From Planctomycetota bacterium (GTDB taxonomy: Bacteria > Planctomycetota > MHYJ01 > WSZJ01): a stretch of DNA of 64,000 bases. A program made the position numbers and the translations under genes. Below are positions 51,456 through 63,955 of this stretch, piece by piece. Every line of letters starts with the position of its first letter. Position 1 is the stretch's first letter. The stretch is from NCBI GenBank assembly GCA_038060895.1, contig JBBTCT010000015.1:96001-160000 (forward strand), in the 5' to 3' direction. Below the pieces are notes generated by a model. It did not search any database, was not told the origin of the DNA, and saw only the letters and a list, made by a program, of their open reading frames with translations.

Positions 51456-54167
51456 TTGAACCCGCACGACGCCGGCGAACGCTTCACCCTCGGCCGCGAA
51501 CTCGGCCGCGGCGGGCTCGGGCGCATCATGGAAGCGCAGGAGAAGGACCTCAACCGGACGGTCGCCCTCAAACTCCTTCGCGACGACCTGCCGAGGGATC
51601 TTGCGGATCGCTTCATGAGGGAAGCGCAGCTGACCGCGCGGCTCGAGCATCCGAACATCGTGCCGGTGCACGAATTCGCGGCGGTCGAGAATCAGCTGGT
51701 GCTCTCGATGAAGCGGATCCAGGGGAGCGACCTGGGGCAGCTCCTGCGCGCGATCGTGGAAGAACGGGCGCCGGGGTGGACGAGGCACAGGCTGCTGGGC
51801 GTGTTCCAGGACATCTGCCAGGGGGTGGCGTTCGCGCACGCGCAGGGAGTGATCCACCGCGATCTGAAGCCGGCGAACGTGATGATCGGCGATTTCGGCG
51901 AAGTGCTGATCGTGGACTGGGGTCTCGCGAAGGACACGAAGGTCGCGGAGTCCCGGCCGCCGACCGCGCAACCGGTGCCGGGATGGACGGGCGGCGATTC
52001 CGCCGAGACGGTTGTGCTCCCGCTCGACGGCTCGACCTGCATCACGGTGGACGGCGCGCTCGTCGGGACGCCGGCGTACATGGCGCCCGAGCAGGCCGAG
52101 GGGCGGACGGCGGACCTTGACGAAAAGAGCGACCTGTATTCGCTCGGCGCGATCCTCTACGAGATCCTGACGTTTGTGCCGCCGGTCGAAGGGCTCAGCC
52201 TGTTCGAAGTGCTGAAGAAGGTGGCGACCGGCGAACGCGTGCCGCCCTCCGAGCGCCTGCGCACCAGCCGCCCCGGGGATCCGCCCCTTCCGCCCGAACT
52301 CGACGCGATCTGCCTCAAGGCGCTCTCGCTGAAAAAAGAAGACCGCTACGAAAACGCGACCGCGCTTCACGACGACATCCAGCTCTACCTCGAGGGCGTC
52401 AAGGAACGCGAGCGGAACCGGCGGCTGGCCGAGGAAGCGGTCTCGCGCGCGCGCCGGCACATGGACGACCAGGAGCGCCTGCAGCGCAAGGCGGGGGCGG
52501 CGCTTCGTACGCTGAAACTCGACGAACAGCGTGTCGAGCCGCGCGGGGACAAGTCGGCGCTGTACCGCGCGCAGGACCGGCTCGAGGAGCTGTACCGGCA
52601 GGAAGCGCGGGCGTTTGCGGATGCGGTAGGGGAGCTGATCGGCGCGCTGAACCACGAGCGGACGCACGCCGGGGCGCGCCGGCTGATGGCGGAGATTCAC
52701 TGGCGCAAGTTCCTGGAAGCGGAAGAGGCGGAGGACCGGCGCGCGATCGAGGTGCACCGGCGCGCGGTGGAGCAGTTCAACGACGGCGAGTTTGGGCGGC
52801 TCCTGAAGGGCGACGGATTCCTGCATGTGCGGGCGGCGGCCTACGAGTGTCCCTGCCTTCGCGAGGGCCGCCCGGTGACGGCCGGGGAGTTCCGGCGCCT
52901 CGGATACAACGTCGCGACGGGCCGCGCGCTGGACGGCCGTGCGCAGGCCGAGGGTGTGCCTTCGATCGAGCCCGCGACGGGGATCTTCCTTCGATGGCAC
53001 TCGGCGGCATGCCGCCCGGCGCCGGTTGCGGGCGCGCGCGTCTGGGCGTGGAGAGTCGAGGAGCAGAATCGCCGGCTGATCCCGGTGACGCCGTCGCGAA
53101 ACGAGGTCGAGCCCGCGGCGCGGCCGAAGAAAATGAAGGGCGCGCCGGTGCACGAACTCTACGCGCTCGACTCCGCAAGCCGTCCGGATGGCGCCGGCGT
53201 CTTTCTGGGTGTGACGCCGCTCGAGCACGTCGCGCTTCCGATGGGCTCGTGGCTCCTCATCGTCGAGGCGGACGGCTTCGAGCCGATCCGCTGCCCGGTC
53301 ACGGTCCCGCGATGCGGGACGTGGATCCAGGACCTCACGCTCTTCAGAACGGGCGAAGTCCCGGACGGTTTCCTCCCGGTCTCCGGAGGCTCATTCGTGT
53401 ACCAGGGCGACACGAAGAACCCGTTTTCGATTCCTTCCGAGACGCGCGTCGTGCCGGACTTCCTGATCCAGCGCCATCCGGTGACGTGCCGCGAGTACGC
53501 GGAGTTCCTGAACGACATCGACCCGCGTGAGGCGGCGCGGCGTGTGCCGCGGCTGGCGCCGTCCGGGGCGGCGTGCTGGGCGGGGCCGCCGTATGCGGTT
53601 CCGACGGCGGAGTGGCTGCGCCATGCGTCGCGCGAAACGCGGGCGCACGCGCGGCGGCCGCAGAACGCGGCGGCGGACTGGCATGCGGACTGGCCGGTGG
53701 TGGGGATCGCGTGGGACGACGCGATGGCGTATGCGGCGTGGCGGCGCAAGGTCGAGCACCTCGCCTGTTTCCTTCCGCACGAGCTCGAATGGGAGAAAGC
53801 GGCGCGCGGCCCGGACCGGCGTCACTTTCCGTGGGGCCCGCAGTTCGACGAGCGCTGGTGCAACGCTTCGAGGTCACTGCCCGAAGCGGCGCACCTCGTT
53901 CCGGTGAAAGAATTTGCCGGCGACGAATCGCCCTACGGCGTGCGCGGCCTCGCCGGCAACGCGGGGGACCACTGTCTCAACGACCCGGGGCGCGACCATC
54001 CCGGCGAGCGCGCGATTCGCGGCGGTGATTTCACGGACACCGGCGTCTACGCGCGAGCGTGCTCGAGGGCGGGAATGAGCGTGCGAAACGTCGCAGACCA
54101 CGTCGGTTTCCGGCTCGTCATTCCGGTGAGATCCGAGACGCGTGGGAGAAGCCGGGGTAGGGAGTAA
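51456..54167 (+). CDS. Ser/Thr kinase with C-terminal FGE-sulfatase (SUMF1-like) domain
   Basis: GRGGLG, HRDLKPAN, DWGLA; PVVGIAWDDAMAY, EWEKAARG, SPYGV..LAGN, GFR. Confidence 0.92.
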   Translation: MNPHDAGERFTLGRELGRGGLGRIMEAQEKDLNRTVALKLLRDDLPRDLADRFMREAQLTARLEHPNIVPVHEFAAVENQLVLSMKRIQGSDLGQLLRAIVEERAPGWTRHRLLGVFQDICQGVAFAHAQGVIHRDLKPANVMIGDFGEVLIVDWGLAKDTKVAESRPPTAQPVPGWTGGDSAETVVLPLDGSTCITVDGALVGTPAYMAPEQAEGRTADLDEKSDLYSLGAILYEILTFVPPVEGLSLFEVLKKVATGERVPPSERLRTSRPGDPPLPPELDAICLKALSLKKEDRYENATALHDDIQLYLEGVKERERNRRLAEEAVSRARRHMDDQERLQRKAGAALRTLKLDEQRVEPRGDKSALYRAQDRLEELYRQEARAFADAVGELIGALNHERTHAGARRLMAEIHWRKFLEAEEAEDRRAIEVHRRAVEQFNDGEFGRLLKGDGFLHVRAAAYECPCLREGRPVTAGEFRRLGYNVATGRALDGRAQAEGVPSIEPATGIFLRWHSAACRPAPVAGARVWAWRVEEQNRRLIPVTPSRNEVEPAARPKKMKGAPVHELYALDSASRPDGAGVFLGVTPLEHVALPMGSWLLIVEADGFEPIRCPVTVPRCGTWIQDLTLFRTGEVPDGFLPVSGGSFVYQGDTKNPFSIPSETRVVPDFLIQRHPVTCREYAEFLNDIDPREAARRVPRLAPSGAACWAGPPYAVPTAEWLRHASRETRAHARRPQNAAADWHADWPVVGIAWDDAMAYAAWRRKVEHLACFLPHELEWEKAARGPDRRHFPWGPQFDERWCNASRSLPEAAHLVPVKEFAGDESPYGVRGLAGNAGDHCLNDPGRDHPGERAIRGGDFTDTGVYARACSRAGMSVRNVADHVGFRLVIPVRSETRGRSRGRE

Positions 54168-54221: not shown

Positions 54222-55262
54222 CTACTTCACTTCCACCTGCACCGAATTCGTGAACAGCTCCCCGCGCCAGTCCTGACGTCCTCCGCCTTCCACGTGATCC
54301 GAAGAAGCCTGAGTCTCCGTGTACACCCCCGTGATCCGGTAAATCCCCGGCGCCGTCGTGTCGAGCCCGTACTTCTTCAGCGACTTCGCGGTCTCGCCCT
54401 CACGCCATTCCGGAAGCGTGTACGGCTTGCCCACGGAGATCTCGACGAGGTGCGGCGCGTTTTTGTCCCAATCGGGGATCTCCGCCGGCTGCAGGAAGTG
54501 GCGCTTCCCGTCCGGAGTCGTGACGAGGAAGCCGTGGTTGCGATAGCCGTTGGAGTACTTGCCGTCCCAGACGAGGGCGGAAGAAGCGGGGAAGGCGAAG
54601 CGGGCGTCCTTGCCGACGCACGCGATTTCGTAGCGGAGCGTGAAGTCCAGGAGGATGTCGTCGCCGGGCTTGACGGTCGCGGCGGCCGGCCTGATTTCGC
54701 CGCGCAGGCCCTTGATCACGTCGCCCGTGGATTCGTCGAGGTTTGCGGTCCACTCGAGGTTCGCGGTTTCAAGCGTGTTGAACGCGCCGCCGTTGCCCGG
54801 GTGGTACACGAGGACGGAGACCTTGAGGCGCGGCGCCTGGGGAAGCGGCACGCAGACGAAGTGCCACTCCTGGTCGTGTTCCAGCCCGGATTTCTGGATG
54901 GGGAAAGACAGCCCGATCTCGAGTTCTCCCTGTTTGCCGTCGCTCACGGCCTTGCGCACGACGAACTTGTTCCAGTCGTCGCCGTACTGGAAGACGCTGG
55001 CGACCATGTTCTTCGAGAAGTCGGTCATGACGAGCGGGTCATCCGCCGGTTTCTTCCAGCCGAGCGCCGCGAGCCGGTCCAGGAACGCGTTCCACTCCGT
55101 CGTGTTGCGGAACACCCGCGAGCCATTCGCGCCGAGCACGTCCGCCGCTTCGTCCTTGATCGTGCCGCGAAGCGCTCTTGCATCGGCGGGATCAGCGGCG
55201 GGAAGGGGAAGCGTCGAGACGGCGAGGAAGAGAAGGGCGGCGGGCAGGATGGCAGGGCGCAT
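54222..55262 (-). CDS. Secreted hypothetical protein (N-terminal part weakly PrcB-C-like)
   Basis: Signal peptide; VFRNTTEW...DFSKNMVASVF. Confidence 0.7.
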   Translation of the reverse strand: MRPAILPAALLFLAVSTLPLPAADPADARALRGTIKDEAADVLGANGSRVFRNTTEWNAFLDRLAALGWKKPADDPLVMTDFSKNMVASVFQYGDDWNKFVVRKAVSDGKQGELEIGLSFPIQKSGLEHDQEWHFVCVPLPQAPRLKVSVLVYHPGNGGAFNTLETANLEWTANLDESTGDVIKGLRGEIRPAAATVKPGDDILLDFTLRYEIACVGKDARFAFPASSALVWDGKYSNGYRNHGFLVTTPDGKRHFLQPAEIPDWDKNAPHLVEISVGKPYTLPEWREGETAKSLKKYGLDTTAPGIYRITGVYTETQASSDHVEGGGRQDWRGELFTNSVQVEVK

Positions 55263-55417
55263 GGGGAACTCCGGTGCTGGGGTTCGGGGATTGGACGGCT
55301 CCGAATTCAGGAAGTTCCCGGTATTAGATGGAAGGCTTGTCCTCAGTAGAGTGCAGCCCCCGAATCGGGGGGGCCCGTGTGCATCGAGAATCGTCTTCCT
55401 CCGCTACCATCCCACAC

Positions 55418-55603
55418 ATGAGAACCCCGACGATCCGCCTGCGCCCTCTGGTGCCCCTCGCAGCCCTCATCACCCTGGCGCTCACGCTCGAGAACGACTG
55501 GCGCAAGGCAACCGTGCTGAAGCGCAGAGTCCCCGGGATCAAGGAAGAGGACCTGGATCGCTTCCGGACGTGGCCCGTCGAGGGCGACGAGATCCTTGAG
55601 TGA
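55418..55603 (+). CDS. Small hypothetical protein leading the TPR array
   Basis: TACCAT 7 nt before ATG; GTGA overlap with TPR copy B. Confidence 0.5.
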   Translation: MRTPTIRLRPLVPLAALITLALTLENDWRKATVLKRRVPGIKEEDLDRFRTWPVEGDEILE

Positions 55604-57066
55604 CCAGGGAGCGCCGGCGATCGAATGAGACAACGCGCGGGGTTTGCGGATTGAATGCCGAGTCCGCTTACCTCTTCAGGCACGTCCTGCTCCGCGATGC
55701 CGCCTACCAGTTGCAGCTCCCCGGCGACCGGGCGCGGCTGCACGGGATTGCGCTCGCTCTGATCGAGGACTTCTGCGGCGGCAGGCCGCCGGAGCAGGCG
55801 CCCCTCGGATCACCGTCGGCCGCAGCCTTCGAGGGACACCCTGCCGACGCGTTCGCCGGAGAACTCGCGGGGCACGCGAGGGCCGCGGAAACCGCGCTGG
55901 CCGCGGGTGCGTTCAGCCGCATCCGCCGGCTGTATCTGCGTCGCGCTGCAGAATACGCGGAGCGGGCCTTTCGCCTCGAGGCCGCTTCTGCCGCCTGGCA
56001 GGAACTGGCGGCGCTTCTCGACCCGCCTGCCGAGGCCCTGGCGCTGGGGAAAGCGGGAGAACTGGCACGCCACGCCGGGCGTGCGGTCGAAGGCGCCCAG
56101 ATGTGGCAACGGGCCCTCGAGATTCACCGTCGCCTCGGGAATCGGGCCGGGGAAGGGATCGCGCTGGCCCACCTGGCCAATCTGAGCGTCGACCTTGGAC
56201 GGATCGAAGAGGCCGAAGGGCGCTACACGGAAGCGCTGGCACTTCATCGAGAGACGGGCGAGGTCCGCTATGAACATGTCACGATGGGAAACCTCGCGAT
56301 TCTCTATCACGACTCCGGCCGGCTCGAAAGCGCCGAACGGACGCTGGAAGAGGCGCTGGCCCGCTGCCGCGCTGCCGGCCATCGCGATCTCGAGGCCGTG
56401 ACGCTCGGCAACCTCGGCAACCTCTACAAGGAGACCGGACGCACCGGGGAGGCGGAAACCGCTCTTCTCCAGGCCCTCGCGCTTCATCGCGAAGCCGGCA
56501 ACGAGCGCTATGTCGGAATCCTCCTTGGGAATCTCGCCAACTTGCGCAAAGACACGGGCAGGACGGCTGAAGCGGAGCGAGGTTACGCGGAGGCGCTTGC
56601 GGTCCACCGGCGGACGGGAAACCGGCGGTCCGAGGGAATCGTCCTGGGGAACCTCGCCGGCCTTTTCCCCACGGACGCTCGCCCCGCGGAAGCGGAGCGC
56701 GGGTACGAGCGCGCGTTGGCCATCCATCGCGAAGTCGGCAACCGGCGGGCGGAGGGCGTCGAGCTTGGGGGGCTCGCCGCGGTCTTTCAGGCCACGGGCC
56801 GGCTCTCACCGGCGATCCGCGCGTTCGACGAGGCCCTTGCCATCCACCGCGAAGTCGGCAATCGGCGCTTTGAGGCCGCGCACTCCTGCGACCGCGCCCT
56901 CGCGCTTCTCGATGCCGGCGATCCCGCGGCCGCCGGCGCCTGGCGGTCGGGGGCGGCGCTTCTGCGCGACCTCGGAGATTCGAACGAAGCGGATCAGAAA
57001 TCCGCCGAAATGCGCGCGGCGTGCAACCGTCGGGGCGTGCAGGCGTTCGAAGGGACGTGGGCGTGA
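55600..57066 (+). CDS. Stand-alone TPR protein with YLFRHVLLRDAAYQLQLPGDRARLH module (copy B)
   Basis: Same N-terminal module and 40-aa TPRs; start GTG 55600 or TTG 55651. Confidence 0.88.
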   Translation: MTRERRRSNETTRGVCGLNAESAYLFRHVLLRDAAYQLQLPGDRARLHGIALALIEDFCGGRPPEQAPLGSPSAAAFEGHPADAFAGELAGHARAAETALAAGAFSRIRRLYLRRAAEYAERAFRLEAASAAWQELAALLDPPAEALALGKAGELARHAGRAVEGAQMWQRALEIHRRLGNRAGEGIALAHLANLSVDLGRIEEAEGRYTEALALHRETGEVRYEHVTMGNLAILYHDSGRLESAERTLEEALARCRAAGHRDLEAVTLGNLGNLYKETGRTGEAETALLQALALHREAGNERYVGILLGNLANLRKDTGRTAEAERGYAEALAVHRRTGNRRSEGIVLGNLAGLFPTDARPAEAERGYERALAIHREVGNRRAEGVELGGLAAVFQATGRLSPAIRAFDEALAIHREVGNRRFEAAHSCDRALALLDAGDPAAAGAWRSGAALLRDLGDSNEADQKSAEMRAACNRRGVQAFEGTWA

Positions 57067-57158
57067 ACGCGGAGAACGCTTACCTCTTTCGTCATGCGCT
57101 GCTGCGGGATGCGGCTTACCAGCTGCATCTCCCTGGTCGAGACGACCCGAGGTTTTGA
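57063..57158 (+). pseudogene. Truncated TPR-cassette stub (copy C): MNAENAYLFRHALLRDAAYQLHLPGRDDPRF*
   Basis: Manual translation; GTGA overlap with the copy B stop; not in the ORF track. Confidence 0.8.
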
Positions 57159-57261
57159 GGCGTTCGAGCGAACGAAGAAAGGCAAGTTCGCGACGCGCTT
57201 CTGCGCGACGCGGCGCGATTTTGTGGTTCAGCCGAGCTCCGGGATTTCGCAGAATACCCGC

Positions 57262-58356
57262 ATGCCAGGCGCGATTCCGCTGAACGAGGAGAACCTGGAC
57301 CTGGGGTTCGAGCCGCCCTTCTGTCTCGTCTGCGGAGAACCCGCACCCCTTGTCAAACGTGAACACGTCAATATCCGGGATTGCGCGGAGCCGCCTCCTT
57401 CCCCCGCCGAGGCGCGCTCCCGGCTGTTTCGGCGCACGATTCGCATCCAGGCCCCGCTCTGCCGGCGTCATCGGAGAAACGCGATTCTTCGAAGGGCAGT
57501 CTACGGCGTCGGCATCGGTCTTTTCACCCTGATCCTGGCTTCATATTTGTTCGTGACGATCAAACCGCGACTCCCGTTCCTGATCGTCCCCGTCTGCGTC
57601 GCCGCATGGATGGGCGTCGCCGCCGGGCGATCCAGGTCCGGAGGCGTCGAACCCGATCTGCTCGTCGAGCGGAAAGATGGCGGTCGCGATCTCGTCTGGC
57701 TGAATCCGCCGCCGGGGCTGGGCGCCCGCCTCCGGCCCCTGGATTATCCGGTTCCGCCGCAGCGGACATTCGATGAGATCGGGACCCCGGCTACCCCCTG
57801 GCTGCTCACGATCCCTCTCAGAGGCGAACAACCGTACTTCGGCAACGACCCGCCTCTCTGCCTGATCTGCGGCGCGCCGGCGACAGGCTTCCGAAAGGTC
57901 GAAGTGGCCCTCGCCGATGGACCGCCGGACGAGGACGGCCAGCGCATCCACCACACCCCAGGTCCCCGGTCGCTTCAGCCCCGGACGACTCCTCCGGTAC
58001 TCGTGACGGTGCAGGCGCCCCTCTGCGCCGAGGAACTGAAGAAGGAGAGGCGGTTTTCCCTCAGCGGAGGCTTCGGCTGCCTGATGATCCTGCTCCTCAT
58101 CGTCTCGTTTTCCGCCATATCCGTTGTCTGGCCGGAGACGATGTTCGCCAACGCCGTGGATAAGGGGTACGTCACGTGGCTTTTCCTCGGGCTTGTGCTC
58201 GTCTGGATCGCCAACGCCAGGCATCCCAGGGACCTCACCGCCAGGGTCCTCGATGAAGGAAGCGAGCGCTGTCTCGCCTGGAGAAACCCACCCCGCGAAT
58301 TGGACCGCGAGATCCACCGCCGCCGTTGCCGCCGCGCTGCGACGGCCCGGGACTGA
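57262..58356 (+). CDS. Membrane protein with two tandem CxxC...PLC + 2TM modules
   Basis: FCLVCGEPA...QAPLC...TM-TM...WLNPP, repeated as LCLICGAPA...QAPLC...TM-TM...WRNPP. Confidence 0.75.
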   Translation: MPGAIPLNEENLDLGFEPPFCLVCGEPAPLVKREHVNIRDCAEPPPSPAEARSRLFRRTIRIQAPLCRRHRRNAILRRAVYGVGIGLFTLILASYLFVTIKPRLPFLIVPVCVAAWMGVAAGRSRSGGVEPDLLVERKDGGRDLVWLNPPPGLGARLRPLDYPVPPQRTFDEIGTPATPWLLTIPLRGEQPYFGNDPPLCLICGAPATGFRKVEVALADGPPDEDGQRIHHTPGPRSLQPRTTPPVLVTVQAPLCAEELKKERRFSLSGGFGCLMILLLIVSFSAISVVWPETMFANAVDKGYVTWLFLGLVLVWIANARHPRDLTARVLDEGSERCLAWRNPPRELDREIHRRRCRRAATARD

Positions 58357-58365
58357 CCTCCGCGA

Positions 58366-59967
58366 GTGAACGCAGCCTTCGACTCGCCGGACCTGAGGGA
58401 GCGTCAGCGAGCCGAAGGGCGTCGCTCGCCCGGGCCGGATTCGGCGGAAGCCGCCTACGTCTTTCGACACGCGCTCCTCCGCGACGCCGCGTATCAACTG
58501 CAGCTTCCCGGCGACCGCGCGCGGCTGCACGCGCTGGCGTTTGCGCTGATCGAGGATCTCTGCGGCGGCCGTCCGCCGGAGCCGCCGCCGCTGGACGCGC
58601 CCGACCCGCCGCCGTTCGCGCCGCACGCAACCGATCCGTTCGCGCGGGAGCTGGCGCAGCACGCGCGGGAAGCGATCCGGTCGCCGGCGGTCCCCGCGTC
58701 GGCGCTTCACCTCTACCTCCAGCGCGCCGCGGTGGTCGCCGAACGCACGATTCAGCCGGGAGCAGAGGAGTGCTGGCTGGAACTGGCGGACATCCTCGAG
58801 GGGACGCTTCAAGGCGCGGCGTTCCTGCACGCGGGCCAGGTCGCCCGCGCGAGAGGCCGCCCCGGCTCCGCCGAGATTCATTTTTCGAAGGGGCTCGCGG
58901 TGAGCCGCGCGGTGGGCGACCGCCGCCAGGAGGCGCTGGTCCTGGGGAGCCTGGGGATCGTGCACCAGGATACGGGGCGCATCGAGGAGGCCGAACGGAC
59001 GTACGGGGAAGCGCTCTCGATCCATCGTGAGCTCGACGACCGCCGCGCGCAGGGCCTCCCGTTGGCAAACCTGGGGAACCTCTACGGGGAGACCGGCCGG
59101 CTCGAGCAGGCCGAGCGGACGCACGAGCAGGCACTGGCGATCCATCGGGAATTCGGCAACCGCCGGCTGGCGGGCATTTCGCTCGGGAACCTGGCGAACT
59201 GTTGCCTCGCGACCGGACGCCTCGAGCAGGCCGAGCGGTTGTACGAGCAGGCGCTGGAGATCGATCGCGCCGTCGGCAATCGCAGCTACGAAGGCCTGGA
59301 GCTGGGAAACCTCGCGCTTCTCTTCAACATGACCGGGCGCGTCGAGCAGGCCGAGCGGACGTACGAAGAGGCGCTCGCGATCCATCGCGAAGTCGGCAAC
59401 CGCCGCTGGGAAGGCACCGCGCTCGGGAGCCTGGCCGTCGTTTTCAAGGAGACCGGGCGAGTCGAAGCGGCCGAGCGGACCTACGAGCGGGCGCTCGCGA
59501 TCCATCGCGAAGTGGGCAATCGCCGCGGCGAGGGGGTCGCGCTGGGACAGCTGGCCAACATCTACCAGGAGTCCGGGCGCGTCGAGGAGGCCGAGACGGC
59601 CTACGAACGCGCGCTGGCGATCCATCGCGAAGTCGGCAACCCGCGCTTCGAGGGCATCGAGCTGGCCAACCTCGCGAGTCTCTATTACGAGAGCGGGCGC
59701 ATCGAGCAGGCCGGGAGCTTCTTCCTGCGCGCTCTCGAGATCATGCGCGCCACCGGGGACCTGCGGTCGGAAGGACTCACCCAGGGTTCCTTCGCCGTGT
59801 TCCTCGCGAGAACGGGCCGCGCCGCCGAAGCGAGGGCGCGCTGGGCCGAGGGCGTGGAGACGCTGAATCGAAGGGGGAACGCGAAGGACCTGCGCCGCAT
59901 GACCGAGGACATGCGCGCCGCGTGCGCGAAGGCGGGGACGGCGCCATTAGATGAGGGAGGGGGATAA
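58366..59967 (+). CDS. Stand-alone TPR protein with YVFRHALLRDAAYQLQLPGDRARLH module (copy D)
   Basis: Same module; about 8 highly regular 40-aa TPRs; start codon uncertain. Confidence 0.88.
   Translation: MNAAFDSPDLRERQRAEGRRSPGPDSAEAAYVFRHALLRDAAYQLQLPGDRARLHALAFALIEDLCGGRPPEPPPLDAPDPPPFAPHATDPFARELAQHAREAIRSPAVPASALHLYLQRAAVVAERTIQPGAEECWLELADILEGTLQGAAFLHAGQVARARGRPGSAEIHFSKGLAVSRAVGDRRQEALVLGSLGIVHQDTGRIEEAERTYGEALSIHRELDDRRAQGLPLANLGNLYGETGRLEQAERTHEQALAIHREFGNRRLAGISLGNLANCCLATGRLEQAERLYEQALEIDRAVGNRSYEGLELGNLALLFNMTGRVEQAERTYEEALAIHREVGNRRWEGTALGSLAVVFKETGRVEAAERTYERALAIHREVGNRRGEGVALGQLANIYQESGRVEEAETAYERALAIHREVGNPRFEGIELANLASLYYESGRIEQAGSFFLRALEIMRATGDLRSEGLTQGSFAVFLARTGRAAEARARWAEGVETLNRRGNAKDLRRMTEDMRAACAKAGTAPLDEGGG
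58375..58420. repeat. REP-like hairpin
   Basis: gccttcgactcg...cgagccgaagggc; inner part resembles 32250-32277. Confidence 0.5.
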
Positions 59968-60076
59968 GACAAAGGCAAAGACAAAGGCAAAACCCAACCC
60001 CAACGCCAAATCCCAAAACATCCCCCTCGTGAGAGAGGCTCTATTGGGATTTGGGGTTGGGGTTGGGACTTGCCTT
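59968..60076. repeat. Hexamer-built long inverted repeat
   Basis: aaggcaaaacccaaccccaacgccaaatcccaa pairs with ttgggatttggggttggggttgggacttgcctt. Confidence 0.75.
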
Positions 60077-60102
60077 CCCCCGCTTCGTACCATGCACCGG
60101 CC

Positions 60103-61515
60103 TTGCACGCCGAAATCGTTTACCTCTTCCGCCACGTCCTCCTCCGCGACGCCGCCTACCAGCTTCAGCTCCCCGGCGACCGCGCGCGGCTGCATGCGCT
60201 CGCGTTGGCGCTGATCGAAGACCTGTACGGCGGCAGGCCGCCTGTGCCGCCTCCGCAGGACCCCGGGGAACCCCTGGGATTCCAGGAGCACCGGACCGAT
60301 CCGTTTGCCGAAGAGCTGGCGGGTCATGCCGCCCACGCGGGGATCGAAGCGGCGCCCGCCGTCGCGAATCTGTACCTGCGCCGGGCCGCGCAGGACGCCG
60401 GTCGAAGGTGGCGGCTTGAGACGTCGGGCAAGTTGTGGCGGCAACTCGCGGAACGATCGACGGGGGTCGAACGCGGCGCCGCCCTCCTCCATGCCGCAAA
60501 CATGGCGCTCGACGCGGGGCGGTCGCTGGAAGCCCTGCCGCTGGTCGAGCAGGCGCTGGCGCTTTTCCGCAGCGAAGGCCACCGCCATTTCGAAGGCGTC
60601 GCGTGGGGAACGCTGGCGAGCCTTAACCGGGAACTGGGCCGGATCCAGCAGGCGGAAGCGGCCGATGAAGCGGCGATGTCGATTTTTCGCGAGACGGGGG
60701 ACCGCCGTGGCGAGGGCACGGCCCTGGGAAACATGGCGAACCTGCTTCGGCAGTCCGGACGCGTTCCGCAGGCCGAGGGCGCCTACAGGCGGGCGCTGGC
60801 GCTTCATCGCGCCGTTCGCAACCGGCGATCGGAGTCGATCGTGCTGGGAAGCCTCGGGAATCTCCTGAAAGCGACCGGCCGGCCCCGCGAGGCCCGGCGC
60901 CTCTTCAGGCAGGCGCTCGCGATCCAGCGCGCCCTCGGCGACCGCCTGCTGGAAGGCACCGGCGTGGCCAATCTGGCCCGAATGGACCAGGCCTCCGGAC
61001 AGCTTCGCCGCGCCGAGCGCGGCTACGCGCAGGCCTTGGCGATCCACAGGGAAGTCGGCGACCGGCGCTTCGAGGGTGTCGCCGTGGGCAACCTCGCCAC
61101 GCTTCACGCGCAGACCGGACGGCCCGGGCTGGCAGAGAAGGGGTTCGAGCAGGCGCTGGCGATCCACCGGGAAGTCGGCAACCGGCGGTCCGAGGGCATC
61201 GCGCTCATGAACCTGTCCCGCCTGCAGGGCGAAACCGGGCGGGCCGCCTCCGCCGAAGCCGGATTTGCGCAGGCCCTGACCCTCTTTCGCGATTCGGGCT
61301 CACGGACCGCGGAAGCCGTGTGCTTTTGCGACTTCGGCGTATTCCTGCTCGACAGGGGCCGCGTCGAAGAGGCGCGCGCGAAGTGGCGCCAGGGGGCTGG
61401 AATCCTGCGCGACCTCGGGGACACGGCGGAGCTCCAGCAGAAAACCGTGGCGATGACGGCCGCGTGCTCCAGGGCGGGAATCCCGCCGCTCGCCGAGGCG
61501 TTGGACGAACATTGA
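60103..61515 (+). CDS. Stand-alone TPR protein with YLFRHVLLRDAAYQLQLPGDRARLH module (copy E)
   Basis: Same module and TPRs; TTG 60103 preceded by TACCAT (track start 60070). Confidence 0.87.
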   Translation: MHAEIVYLFRHVLLRDAAYQLQLPGDRARLHALALALIEDLYGGRPPVPPPQDPGEPLGFQEHRTDPFAEELAGHAAHAGIEAAPAVANLYLRRAAQDAGRRWRLETSGKLWRQLAERSTGVERGAALLHAANMALDAGRSLEALPLVEQALALFRSEGHRHFEGVAWGTLASLNRELGRIQQAEAADEAAMSIFRETGDRRGEGTALGNMANLLRQSGRVPQAEGAYRRALALHRAVRNRRSESIVLGSLGNLLKATGRPREARRLFRQALAIQRALGDRLLEGTGVANLARMDQASGQLRRAERGYAQALAIHREVGDRRFEGVAVGNLATLHAQTGRPGLAEKGFEQALAIHREVGNRRSEGIALMNLSRLQGETGRAASAEAGFAQALTLFRDSGSRTAEAVCFCDFGVFLLDRGRVEEARAKWRQGAGILRDLGDTAELQQKTVAMTAACSRAGIPPLAEALDEH

Positions 61516-61572
61516 GAGTCTGGCATCCTGGCCGAAGTTCGGGTAAATAGAGCGCTTCCCGGAGGAAAACCG

Positions 61573-62439
61573 ATGAGAAACCTGGCCTTGTCGCTCCTGC
61601 TCTTCGCCGTCGCCGGCTGCTCTTCCGAACCCGAGCGGGCCGCTTCGAAACCGGACGTCGACGCGCTCGCGGGCAAGCGCGCGGCGATGGACCAGCCGGT
61701 CCCCGATTTCACGCTGCGGGACCTGACCCGCGACGGCGCCTTCGTGTCGCTCGCGGAGCTTCGCGGCCGCGCGGTCGTGCTTTTCTTCTTGAGCCCCAAC
61801 TGACAGGCCGCAAAGGGCTACGAAGCCCGCGTCGGCCAGGTCCTGGCCGACTACAAGGGCAAGAACGTGACGATCCTCGGCGTCCGGAGCAGCTCCACCG
61901 ACACCGACGAGGAAGTCCGGAAGTACGCGACGGAGAAGAGCCTCTCGATCCCCGTTCTCGCCGACGACGGCAACGTCCTCGCCGATTTCTTCAACGTGCC
62001 GAACTTCATGGTCTTCGTCGTCATCGACGCCGAGGGCCGCATGCGGTCGTGGGGCGGCATCGACGATCATCACGACGAGAAGCGCGCGAAGCGCCCGCAC
62101 CTCCGCAACGCGCTCGACGCGGTCCTGGCCGGGAAGGACGTCGCGGCGAAGCGGACCTTCGCCTTCGGGTGACCCATCCCCCGCTCGGTTCGTCGAACCG
62201 AGGCCGAGGCGACCCGCGATTTCGAGGCGTTCGTGGGGAGTCTCTCGGACGAAGGGGTGACGGGGCGGTTCAAGAAGTTCCTTCAGACGGACGAGATGCG
62301 GCCGGCCATGGTCCAGGCCCTCCAGAAGGGCGTCCGCATGGACCTCGCGGTCGAGAACTACTACGAGCGCACGAAGGACGGCAAGTTCGTGATGAAGGCG
62401 GAGATGGCGGAGGTGATGGGGGAGATGTTCCCGGAGTAA
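61573..62439 (+). CDS. Peroxiredoxin-like/redoxin lipoprotein with two in-frame UGA codons (candidate selenoprotein)
   Basis: GGAGG SD; AVAGC lipobox; PDFTL; FLSPN-UGA(61801)-QAAKGY; GGIDD; TFAFG-UGA(62170)-PI; track ORFs 61573, 61867 and 62233 are all in one frame. Confidence 0.75.
61806..61837 (+). promoter_or_regulatory. Candidate bacterial SECIS hairpin after the first UGA
   Basis: GGGCT-ACGA-AGCCC stem starts 11 nt after the UGA, inside an outer GGCCG/CGGCC stem. Confidence 0.5.
62184..62202 (+). promoter_or_regulatory. Candidate bacterial SECIS hairpin after the second UGA
   Basis: CTCGGTTC-GTC-GAACCGAG stem starts 11 nt after the UGA; loop begins with G. Confidence 0.55.
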
Positions 62440-62455
62440 CGCTTAGAATCCGCCG

Positions 62456-63955
62456 GTGCGCTCCGCCGAAGCTGCTTATGTGTTCCGCCACGCGCTCATG
62501 CGTGACGCGGCGTACCAGCTCCAGCTCCCCGGCGACCGCGCGCGACTGCACGGACTGGCGTTCGCGCTCATCGAAGACCTGTGCGGCGGCCGCGCCCCAG
62601 ATCCCGCGCCGTTCGAAGAGTCCGGCGGGGCGCCGGATGCTCTCCACGCGTCCGACGCGCTGGCCGAGGACCTGGCGGCCCACGCGCGGCATTCGGGAGC
62701 GCCGGCGTCCCTCGAGCTGCTGTACCTCCGCCGCGCCGCGGGCCGCGCCGAACGGCAGTACGATTTGGACGCGGCCGAATCCCTCTGGAGCCGCGTCGCC
62801 GCGCTGCTTCCGGAAGATCAGGCCGCGGCGGCCCTCCAGTACGCCGGGCGCTGCGCGGTCTTTCGCTCCCACTACGGCGCCGCGGAGGAGATCTTCCAGC
62901 GGCTGGTCGAGCTCGGGAAGAGTGCCGGGAATCCCCGCGCCGTCGCCGCCGCGCGGAACAACCTGTCCATCGTGTTCCGGGAGACCGGGCGGCGGGCGGA
63001 AGCGATCGAGGCATCGCGCGATGCGATCGCGAAGTTCCGCGAAGGCGGCTTCCCCGCCGAGGAGGCCCGCACGCTGTCCTCCCTCTCCCACCTCGAGCTG
63101 GAAGCGGGTCGGCCTCTGGAGGCGGAGGCGCTTCTCCGCCGGGCGCTCGAGCTGATCGCGGCTCACGGGAAGCCCCTCGACGAGGGGCTGGCGTGCATCA
63201 GCCTCGGCAGCGCCCTCAACGCCCTGGCGCGCTTCCCCGAAGCCGAGGCGTCGATGAGGCGCGCCGTCGACATCCTGCGCGCCGCCGGCGCGCGTCGCTA
63301 CCTCGCCATCGCCCTGAGCAACCTCGGCCAGCTCCTGCAGGACTCCGAGCGCATCGAGGAGGCGCTGGCGCTGCTCGAAGAGGCGCTGGCGATCCACCGT
63401 GAAGTAGGCAACAAGCGGTCCGAAGGCATCACGCTGGGGACCCTCGCCCTCGTCCACCAGAATGCCGGACGACATGACCGCGCCGAGGCGATCTACCGCG
63501 ACGCGCTCTCCGTCAACGAGGAGACCGGCAACCGCCGCCAGTTCGCCGTCGTCCTCGGCAACATCGGGTCCCTCTGGCAGGAGCGCGGCAAGTTCGCGGA
63601 AGCCGAGGCCCTCTACCGCCGCGCCCTCGCCCTCCACCGGGAGGTCGGATACCGCCGCTTCGAAGGCATCATCCTCGGCTCGCTCGCCATCGTGTCCCTG
63701 GTCACCGGCCGCCTCGACGACGCCCTGCGCCTCTTCCGCGACGCCGTCGCCGTCCATCGCGCCGTCCGCAATCGCATGCACGAGGGCGTCCACCTCTGCG
63801 GCCTCGCCGCGGCGCTTCGGTGTCAGGGCGATGCGGCGGAAGCGCGGGCCGCGTGGGATGAGGGGGCGGCGATCCTGGCCGAAGTCGATCTCCGGAGGCT
63901 GGAGCACGCGCGGGCCCTGGCCCGGCAGGTGTGCGGCGACGCATTCGAGTCCTGA
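62456..63955 (+). CDS. Stand-alone TPR protein with YVFRHALMRDAAYQLQLPGDRARLH module (copy F)
   Basis: Same module and TPRs; TAGAAT 6 nt before GTG. Confidence 0.88.
   Translation: MRSAEAAYVFRHALMRDAAYQLQLPGDRARLHGLAFALIEDLCGGRAPDPAPFEESGGAPDALHASDALAEDLAAHARHSGAPASLELLYLRRAAGRAERQYDLDAAESLWSRVAALLPEDQAAAALQYAGRCAVFRSHYGAAEEIFQRLVELGKSAGNPRAVAAARNNLSIVFRETGRRAEAIEASRDAIAKFREGGFPAEEARTLSSLSHLELEAGRPLEAEALLRRALELIAAHGKPLDEGLACISLGSALNALARFPEAEASMRRAVDILRAAGARRYLAIALSNLGQLLQDSERIEEALALLEEALAIHREVGNKRSEGITLGTLALVHQNAGRHDRAEAIYRDALSVNEETGNRRQFAVVLGNIGSLWQERGKFAEAEALYRRALALHREVGYRRFEGIILGSLAIVSLVTGRLDDALRLFRDAVAVHRAVRNRMHEGVHLCGLAAALRCQGDAAEARAAWDEGAAILAEVDLRRLEHARALARQVCGDAFES

Follow-up and report, generated by a model that had tools for sequence, protein, structure and literature searches.

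Two in-frame UGA codons at the redox positions of a planctomycete PrxL-type redoxin gene point to an exported protein with two selenocysteines

The stretch of DNA analysed here (hereafter the window) comprises 64,000 nucleotides of a Planctomycetota bacterium from groundwater (assembly GCA_038060895.1, contig JBBTCT010000015.1, positions 96,001 to 160,000), and all coordinates are those of the window. At 61573..62439, on the forward strand, lies a redoxin gene that standard annotation breaks into three pieces. Very probably this gene encodes a single exported lipoprotein of 288 residues, of the PrxL type, in which each of two UGA codons is decoded as selenocysteine (Sec) with the help of its own selenocysteine insertion sequence (SECIS); the two Sec residues would constitute a distant redox pair and the second would be followed by a tail of 88 residues. 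Five observations carry this view: the pieces belong to one reading frame; both UGA codons align with conserved Cys residues; the genome encodes the machinery for Sec insertion; hairpins with a GU-containing loop accompany TGA among homologues; and orthologous genes are broken at the same two places.

The interval 61573–62439 (+) is a single frame of 288 codons and a TAA stop (62437–62439), the sole interruptions of which are a TGA at 61801–61803 (UGA-1; codon 77, context FFLSPN-U-QAAKG) and a second at 62170–62172 (UGA-2; codon 200, context TFAFG-U-PIPR). Translation table 11 splits this frame into open reading frames (ORFs) of 76, 101 and 68 codons (61573..61803, 61867..62172 and 62233..62439), and 88 further codons (62173–62436) lie past the second TGA. 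All three segments look coding in this frame because the G+C content of their third codon positions (GC3) is 0.895, 0.943 and 0.92; that of the flanking genes is 0.83–0.89. The ATG at 61573 has a Shine-Dalgarno-like GGAGG (61561..61565) 7 nt on its 5′ side and is backed by three orthologous N-terminal ORFs of equal, 76-residue size. As read off the sequence, the N-terminus (MRNLALSLLLFAVAG followed by C) fits a lipoprotein-type signal peptide (61573..61620) with the lipobox V-A-G-C (Cys16); LAGC is kept in the orthologous fragments P0083–P0085. UGA-2 is also covered, with zero differences, by contigs of three further studies of groundwater or aquifers.

A preliminary description of this DNA had proposed one frame broken by TGA at 61801 and 62170, an exported product, fragmentation by annotation, and a gain of about 88 residues on read-through of the second UGA. 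The frame and its GC3 bear out the first of these proposals and the 88 codons at 62173–62436 the last, and the predicted lipoprotein signal agrees with export. Fragmentation extends beyond the window: not only the window's three ORFs but also the fragments of at least three diverged orthologues are filed as separate ORFs of 76, 101 and 56–87 residues.

Residues 38–203 (61684..62181) make up a redoxin domain with the thioredoxin fold. Pfam recognises AhpC-TSA over residues 40–157 (PF00578; E 1.5e-14, 54.5 bits against a cut-off of 26), together with Redoxin and Thioredoxin_8; no NCBIfam model scored above its cut-off, matches of the ResA/PrxQ type being sub-threshold only. The closest solved proteins are 2ywi from Geobacillus, 3u5r from Sinorhizobium (SMc02350) and 2cvb/2ywo from Thermus, with E values of 4e-9 to 3e-6 over residues 38–203. 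The same proteins are found by Foldseek, with target-normalised TM-scores of 0.79–0.83, when the query is an AlphaFold2 model built on 41 sequences (mean predicted local distance difference test score (pLDDT) 91.6; predicted TM-score (pTM) 0.86). The counterpart of U77 in 2ywi, 3u5r and 2cvb is the conserved ‘CP’ Cys, and in ResA (4nmu) and 2l5o it is the first CxxC Cys; U200 aligns with the C-terminal Cys in the motifs GCSI, GCNI and GCTI of 2ywi, 3u5r and 2cvb. A conserved N-terminal Cys at the first position of the thioredoxin CxxC is characteristic of cd02969, and the closest solved relatives, together with the two conserved sites, suggest that the window protein is of this PRX_like1/PrxL (cd02969) type.

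Homologues tell the same story of the two sites. Cys occupies both in the database homologues P0003, P0004, P0006, P0007, P0010, P0011 and P0012, and L021 likewise supports Cys at both. In tblastn rows of homologous loci, Cys codons fill site 77 in 67 of 70 rows, with TGA in the remaining three, and site 200 is Cys in 24, TGA in four and Ala in two; the two Ala rows are a spurious alignment to one thioredoxin (Trx)/PDZ locus, counted twice. A pairwise mapping of 78 homologue frames, separate from the tblastn rows, returned Cys/Cys at the first and second sites in 22 frames, Cys/TGA in 12 and TGA/TGA in one; the second site was unaligned in 34 frames with Cys and in one frame with TGA at the first, and eight frames had other combinations (these rows are not independent, because many of the loci are near-duplicates or paralogues). 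The preliminary description had placed both UGA codons at catalytic Cys positions, to be checked against homologues, and with 67 and 24 Cys rows and 22 Cys/Cys frames that placement holds.

In some homologues one or both sites are themselves TGA. Eleven loci in nine genomes of the phylum (L022, L023, L040, L041, L042, L045, L049, L050, L051, L104 and L105) have Cys at site 1 and TGA at site 2, followed after 3–16 residues by a true stop, mostly TAG. These putative single-Sec ‘G-U’ relatives are secreted PRX_like1-type redoxins, and in every one of them a GU-loop hairpin lies 12–17 nt past the TGA. In the ORFs P0002, P0072, P0074 and P0075, site 1 is likewise Cys, and each of them stops immediately ahead of site 2. 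A further locus, L043 (G009:C559; same order, ∼28% identical), has TGA at both sites (locus positions 534–536 and 903–905, in the contexts WSIT-U-PVC and TQVG-U-GIGG, then TAG), with a GUC-loop hairpin after each. Taking all loci with TGA at site 2, a hairpin is present 12–17 nt downstream in 12 of 13. The exception, L070, is a doubtful alignment that we rejected as a chance one: its TGA stands at the aligned G-x site, there is no hairpin, and a long open frame continues.

The source genome (5.4 Mb in 47 contigs, 86.5% complete) encodes SelA and SelB, a tRNA-Sec (71.7 bits, anticodon TCA) and SelD, the gene for which has an in-frame TGA of its own (G000:C2:48628-49548, −). The four components whose presence had been named beforehand as a check on Sec decoding are therefore all there. 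A crude screen for in-frame TGA codons, in which coding-like GC3 was required on both flanks, produced 35 candidate sites in this genome, including that of fdhA (CNRT-U-HAPS), those of about nine thioredoxin-fold U-x-x-C genes, and UGA-1.

Each UGA codon is followed, within the coding sequence, by a hairpin with the loop GUC. After UGA-2 the hairpin begins at 11 nt and has a stem of 8 bp (candidate SECIS 2; 62184–62202; arms CUCGGUUC/GAACCGAG), a geometry identical to that found after the UGA of the genome's own fdhA, where an 8-bp stem with the loop GUC also follows after 11 nt. After UGA-1 there are two hairpins. The nearer, at 11 nt, is a small one of 5 bp (GGGCU/AGCCC, loop ACGA; 61815–61828), which is probably not the SECIS because its loop is without GU; the other begins at 27 nt and, with a 9-bp stem, is far stronger (candidate SECIS 1; 61831–61851; arms GUCGGCCAG/CUGGCCGAC). 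In other selenoprotein candidates of the genome the GU(C/U)-loop stems start 9–28 nt downstream, some of them at 24 and 28. The preliminary description had a stem-loop exactly 11 nt after each TGA: this stands for UGA-2 with its 8-bp stem, but at UGA-1 only the weak 5-bp hairpin has that spacing and the likely SECIS starts at 27 nt.

Such hairpins are uncommon by chance. At 200,000 random positions of this genome, a GU-loop hairpin starting 8–30 nt downstream occurred at a rate of 0.90% for stems of at least 8 bp and 0.39% for stems of at least 9 bp; the product of the two, which assumes independence, is ∼3.5e-5. Among the homologue rows, GU-loop hairpins of at least 5 bp go with TGA: they follow it in 3/3 rows at site 77 and 4/4 at site 200, as against 1/67 and 0/24 rows with a Cys codon. 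An Rfam scan of 61500–62500 (E up to 10) gave two chance matches, mir-598 and gyrA RNA, and matched neither hairpin.

Orthologous ORF calls from metagenomes, 60–81% identical to the window protein, fall into three pieces as the window gene does, with breaks at both of its sites. The N-terminal pieces (P0083, P0084 and P0085) are exactly 76 residues long, 72–81% identical, and end in FFLSPN or FFMSYN; the middle pieces (P0068, P0069, P0071 and P0073) share 60–78% identity and run right up to site 2, their last residues being ALG or GLG; and the tail piece P0061 (87 residues, 61% identical) starts two codons past site 2. P0062, P0064 and P0066 are further tail ORFs. A single Joint Genome Institute (JGI) contig is given for each of these ORFs, its length being 16,257 bases for P0084, P0068 and P0061, 6,770 bases for P0085 and P0073, and 1,451 bases for P0069 and P0066 (P0083 is on a contig of 989 bases): the reported lengths suggest that each set of pieces shares one contig. 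Two ORFs were set aside, namely P0070, the end of which diverges, a frameshift in the contig being the probable cause, and P0065 (393 residues, a cluster mate of P0062), which is an unrelated protein. Scans of metagenome DNA for orthologues confirmed 0/91 pattern matches with P0001 as query and gave 37 loci with P0002, all of them distant (27–46% identity) and P0002's own contig not among them; a GTDB scan for close orthologues gave two loci, both irrelevant.

The module encoded past UGA-2 (residues 201–288; 62173..62436) consists, in the model, of five helices and a beta hairpin, and in this frame is reached by read-through of UGA-2 only. It has no Pfam match. Structural searches with the tail gave no usable match in the ESM Atlas (TM ≤0.44), a best E of 0.44 with Foldseek against the PDB, and a best Z of 3.8 with VIA-align, none reaching 5 among 48,161 chains. 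Stretches homologous to it do occur in the secreted Trx-like/PDZ proteins L055, L056, L057 and L102, which are built of a thioredoxin-like (CGFC) domain, a coiled linker, a tail-type module and a PDZ domain: L056 (601–1770, −) has 389 residues, L055 (637–1779, +) 380, and L057 (504–1328, −) 274, the last without the Trx part. Between UGA-2 and the first possible start codon, GTG 62233, there is no in-frame ATG, GTG or TTG, and this stretch is conserved with P0061 (RSVRRTEAEATRDFEAFVG versus RSVRRTEEEAAREFEKFVG); because a stretch without a start is conserved, read-through of UGA-2 is the simplest explanation. As a separate observation, 62192–62348, within the part that encodes the tail, is identical to a contig from an aquifer metatranscriptome library; since carry-over of DNA is possible, the match is a weak hint of transcription.

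Several observations weigh against the proposed account of the gene. UGA-2 failed the in-frame TGA screen because GC3 over the next 20 codons is only 0.80, and the 61-nt fold around this codon is no more stable than its shuffles (z +0.93): what stands out there is the local hairpin, not the fold as a whole. A weak GAGG lies 5 nt upstream of GTG 62233, so that part of the tail could conceivably be translated on its own. The loop G of SECIS 1 is 37 nt from UGA-1, which places it at the far end of the range of bacterial SECIS models. UGA-1 is itself within a stretch, 61646–61850, that none of the four independent sequencing runs covers; independent DNA support for this codon is accordingly indirect and comes from the ends of orthologous ORFs. 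In the direct orthologues the stops are known as ORF ends and not as TGA. The gene was not found in any of seven same-genus genomes (81–94% complete) searched by protein, by tail and by DNA. Lastly, PrxL of Caulobacter has no detectable thiol peroxidase activity, as reported in the part of PMC3322552 consulted.

Three other explanations deserve to be set beside these facts. The one that survives best, improbable as it is, holds that UGA-2 is a true stop, in which case the redoxin would end at Gly199 without a C-terminal partner, and the 68–88 codons downstream would either be a separate small gene, from GTG 62233, or go untranslated. The split made by gene callers in public data is the same one, table 11 yields an ORF of 68 codons behind the weak GAGG, and the dip in GC3 follows directly upon the codon. 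Yet a true stop would have fallen precisely on a Cys that is conserved in all Cys-type homologues, with an fdhA-like hairpin at canonical spacing behind it, and 12 other loci combine TGA and a hairpin at this site with a brief extension that another stop codon, in most of them TAG, brings to an end. Nor does a small gene starting at the GTG take in the peptide before it, which is conserved with P0061 where no start codon exists. The tail, moreover, attains a pLDDT of 94–97 in the full-length model (pTM 0.86) as against a mean of 83.6 when folded alone.

A pseudogene, an assembly error or a population variant that arose when TGC or TGT, coding for Cys, turned into TGA at one site or at both is more improbable still, and would concern site 1 above all: most relatives have Cys there and a single base separates TGC from TGA. 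The lack of coverage of UGA-1 by the four runs and the failure to find the gene in the seven same-genus genomes searched are both compatible with such an accident, but three N-terminal ORFs that have diverged to 72–81% identity stop at the same codon, with middle pieces that begin only after it, and we do not regard the gene as a pseudogene because the orthologous calls break at the same two sites. Decay would also sit poorly with a GC3 that is still 0.94 and 0.92 downstream, with a second gene (L043) that has TGA at both sites, and with the 9-bp GUC-loop hairpin behind UGA-1, of a kind seen at 0.39% of random positions (even at 5 bp or more, a GU-loop hairpin follows only one of 67 Cys rows).

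The least probable of the three is read-through without a Sec-tRNA, by near-cognate decoding as Cys or Trp or through leaky termination at UGA-C, so that sulphur or another residue would be inserted. Both codons are in fact followed by C, and UGAC is a leaky context in E. coli; still, the Sec machinery of the genome is complete, the hairpins after the two codons have the geometry of the fdhA SECIS and strictly co-occur with TGA across homologues, and TGA is also an ordinary stop here, for example at 61513–61515. A genetic code in which TGA means Trp or Gly (tables 4 and 25) was rejected, since that same TGA terminates the gene upstream and Cys is the residue aligned with either site.

If both codons are indeed decoded as Sec, the gene would be expressed as one exported lipoprotein of 288 residues with a PRX_like1/PrxL-type thioredoxin fold. 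SelA, SelB, SelD and tRNA-Sec would decode UGA-1 and UGA-2, each under the direction of its GUC-loop SECIS in the coding sequence. Sec77 would then serve as the nucleophile, at the first position of the thioredoxin CxxC, and Sec200, which would take the place of the conserved Cys in the C-terminal G-C-x-I/K motif, as its redox partner; judging from the analogous Caulobacter PrxL, the two may cycle in the cell envelope between the diselenol and an intramolecular diselenide, re-reduced presumably by a membrane electron transporter of the DsbD/ScsB type. Decoding of UGA-2 would at the same time add the 88-residue module that is common to secreted Trx-like/PDZ proteins of the same class. The module probably docks a partner or a substrate. 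One DsbD_TM-family gene is present in the genome (C14:123686–124321), not adjacent to the redoxin gene, and its product is a candidate for the reductant.

The analogy is with the PrxL of Caulobacter crescentus (cd02969, with a signal peptide), which has just two redox Cys residues, far apart in the sequence; it is periplasmic and mostly reduced in vivo, and becomes oxidised on depletion of the DsbD-family protein ScsB (PMC3322552, in the part consulted). Because this distant Cys pair forms a reversible disulfide (the same part of PMC3322552), a long-range diselenide is plausible. It is possible, though we would put the chance slightly below even, that a Sec77–Sec200 diselenide is the working couple of the envelope, the first natural case beyond UxxU: a low-potential switch recycled by DsbD/ScsB, with the tail as a new docking domain. 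Were this so, the Sec77/Sec200 pair would be a switch of very low potential that resists over-oxidation, and the tail would bring substrate or reductant to the redox site.

The redoxin gene stands between two paralogous TPR genes of the same strand (60070–61512 and 62456–63952), from which it is separated by 57 nt and 17 nt. These belong to a tandem array of such paralogues (55600–57063, 58366–59964, 60070–61512 and 62456–63952) downstream of a gene at 51456–54164 (+) whose 903-residue product joins a Ser/Thr protein kinase domain to an FGE-sulfatase (sulfatase-modifying-factor-like) domain. For the initial ∼150 nt of the TPR genes (e.g., 62440–62760) there are 106 matches in the genome and 35–117 in each same-genus genome, and the TPR genes therefore form a very large paralogue family. 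The ORFs 54294–55346 and 57094–58353, which lie between TPR genes, have no Pfam match. No promoter-like site was found in 61300–62700, nor a terminator-like site past the redoxin stop codon, and the neighbourhood holds no pointer to a redox partner.

Elsewhere the genome looks rich in selenoproteins. The in-frame TGA screen also returned the uncharacterised contexts MITGHC-U-ATATQ (C20) and EIFPCG-U-HGEK (C35). On G000:C36 (+), at ∼44.0 kb and 50.8 kb, are two paralogous genes of ∼1,170 codons (L112 covers the first), each interrupted in frame by a TGA within DPKAPDY-U-T(H/F)FWRQV; their products have a membrane anchor, FG-GAP/VCBS-like repeats, a TlpA-like CxxC domain and TPR. In one of the two, a 7-bp hairpin with the loop AGGUC lies 9 nt past the TGA. 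The pair is a possible further type of selenoprotein.

How does the window gene compare with systems already known? In the bacterial SECIS of the E. coli fdhF type, a hairpin within the coding sequence directly follows the UGA and has GU in its apical loop. Both window hairpins resemble it, being in the coding sequence after the UGA and having a GU loop; SECIS 1 differs in that it starts 27 nt downstream. SelL is an animal Prx-like selenoprotein with a UxxU diselenide and a SECIS in the 3′ untranslated region. The window protein shares with SelL a Prx-like fold and a pair of putative Sec residues in place of a redox Cys pair; in SelL, which is eukaryotic, the two are three residues apart in one motif, whereas here 123 residues separate them. 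The name SelL is found in PMC2398784.

Among catalogued selenoproteins a comparable entry is the ‘Prx-like thiol:disulfide oxidoreductase’ of a 2026 review (PMC13188914), assigned there to PF00578, with UxxC or UxxU and one or two Sec. In its consulted parts this review counts 119 families or subfamilies of selenoprotein, of which ‘the vast majority’ have a single Sec; in its section 7, part 1, and in searches of it by term, neither an entry for cd02969 nor a pair of distant Sec residues appears. The window protein is like these catalogued proteins in Pfam family, in thioredoxin fold, in having its predicted Sec at the first CxxC position, and in the number of Sec (up to two). It is unlike them in its motif, U-Q-A-A-K, where the +3 residue is neither Cys nor Sec, and in its second predicted Sec, 123 residues further on in a C-terminal G-U; because the motif reads U-Q-A-A, the protein falls outside the definition by UxxC or UxxU. 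The same review lists a ‘Trx7/PDZ domain-containing’ selenoprotein family, to which the Trx-like/PDZ proteins that share the tail module may be related.

Also comparable are the single-Sec ‘G-U’ relatives, a subfamily apparently uncatalogued in the consulted parts of PMC13188914. Family and phylum are those of the window protein, and at the C-terminal site they too have TGA, followed by a hairpin with a GU loop; they differ in having Cys at site 1 and just 3–16 residues after the putative Sec, and are 25–46% identical to the window protein. Gene callers cut both the single-Sec and the double-Sec forms into two or three ORFs, and because of these cuts the tail domain is filed as an orphan small protein.

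The solved relatives 2ywi, 3u5r and 2cvb/2ywo share the fold, and their two Cys residues align with U77 and U200. In contrast to the window protein, with which they have 20–26% identity, all are Cys proteins of ∼190 residues without a tail; 2ywi and 3u5r, moreover, have the Cys motif AACTPDF, where the window protein has VPNFMVF instead. AACTPDF is the motif of cyanobacterial PRX-like1 proteins (cd02969), according to the part of PMC3514251 consulted.

In its general plan the protein resembles Caulobacter PrxL: an exported thioredoxin fold whose only two redox residues lie far apart, towards the N-terminus and the C-terminus; in PrxL this pair bonds reversibly in vivo and relies on an electron transporter of the DsbD superfamily (PMC3322552, in the part consulted). 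PrxL lacks a long tail and its two redox positions are Cys; in the window gene both are UGA, and a module of 88 residues follows the second. What appears to be new is the combination, in a PRX_like1/PrxL-type redoxin, of predicted Sec at the two partner positions with a novel C-terminal module. Selenoproteins with two Sec are rare, and the known double-Sec redox motifs keep both residues adjacent (UxxU); here, both members of a distant and experimentally documented PrxL-type redox pair would be Sec. The putative double-Sec arrangement appears to be kept in several lineages from groundwater and metagenomes, is seen again in another gene (that of G009), and would provide a natural system in which to ask what advantage a diselenide has over a disulfide or a selenenylsulfide in an oxidising envelope, and how it is reduced there.

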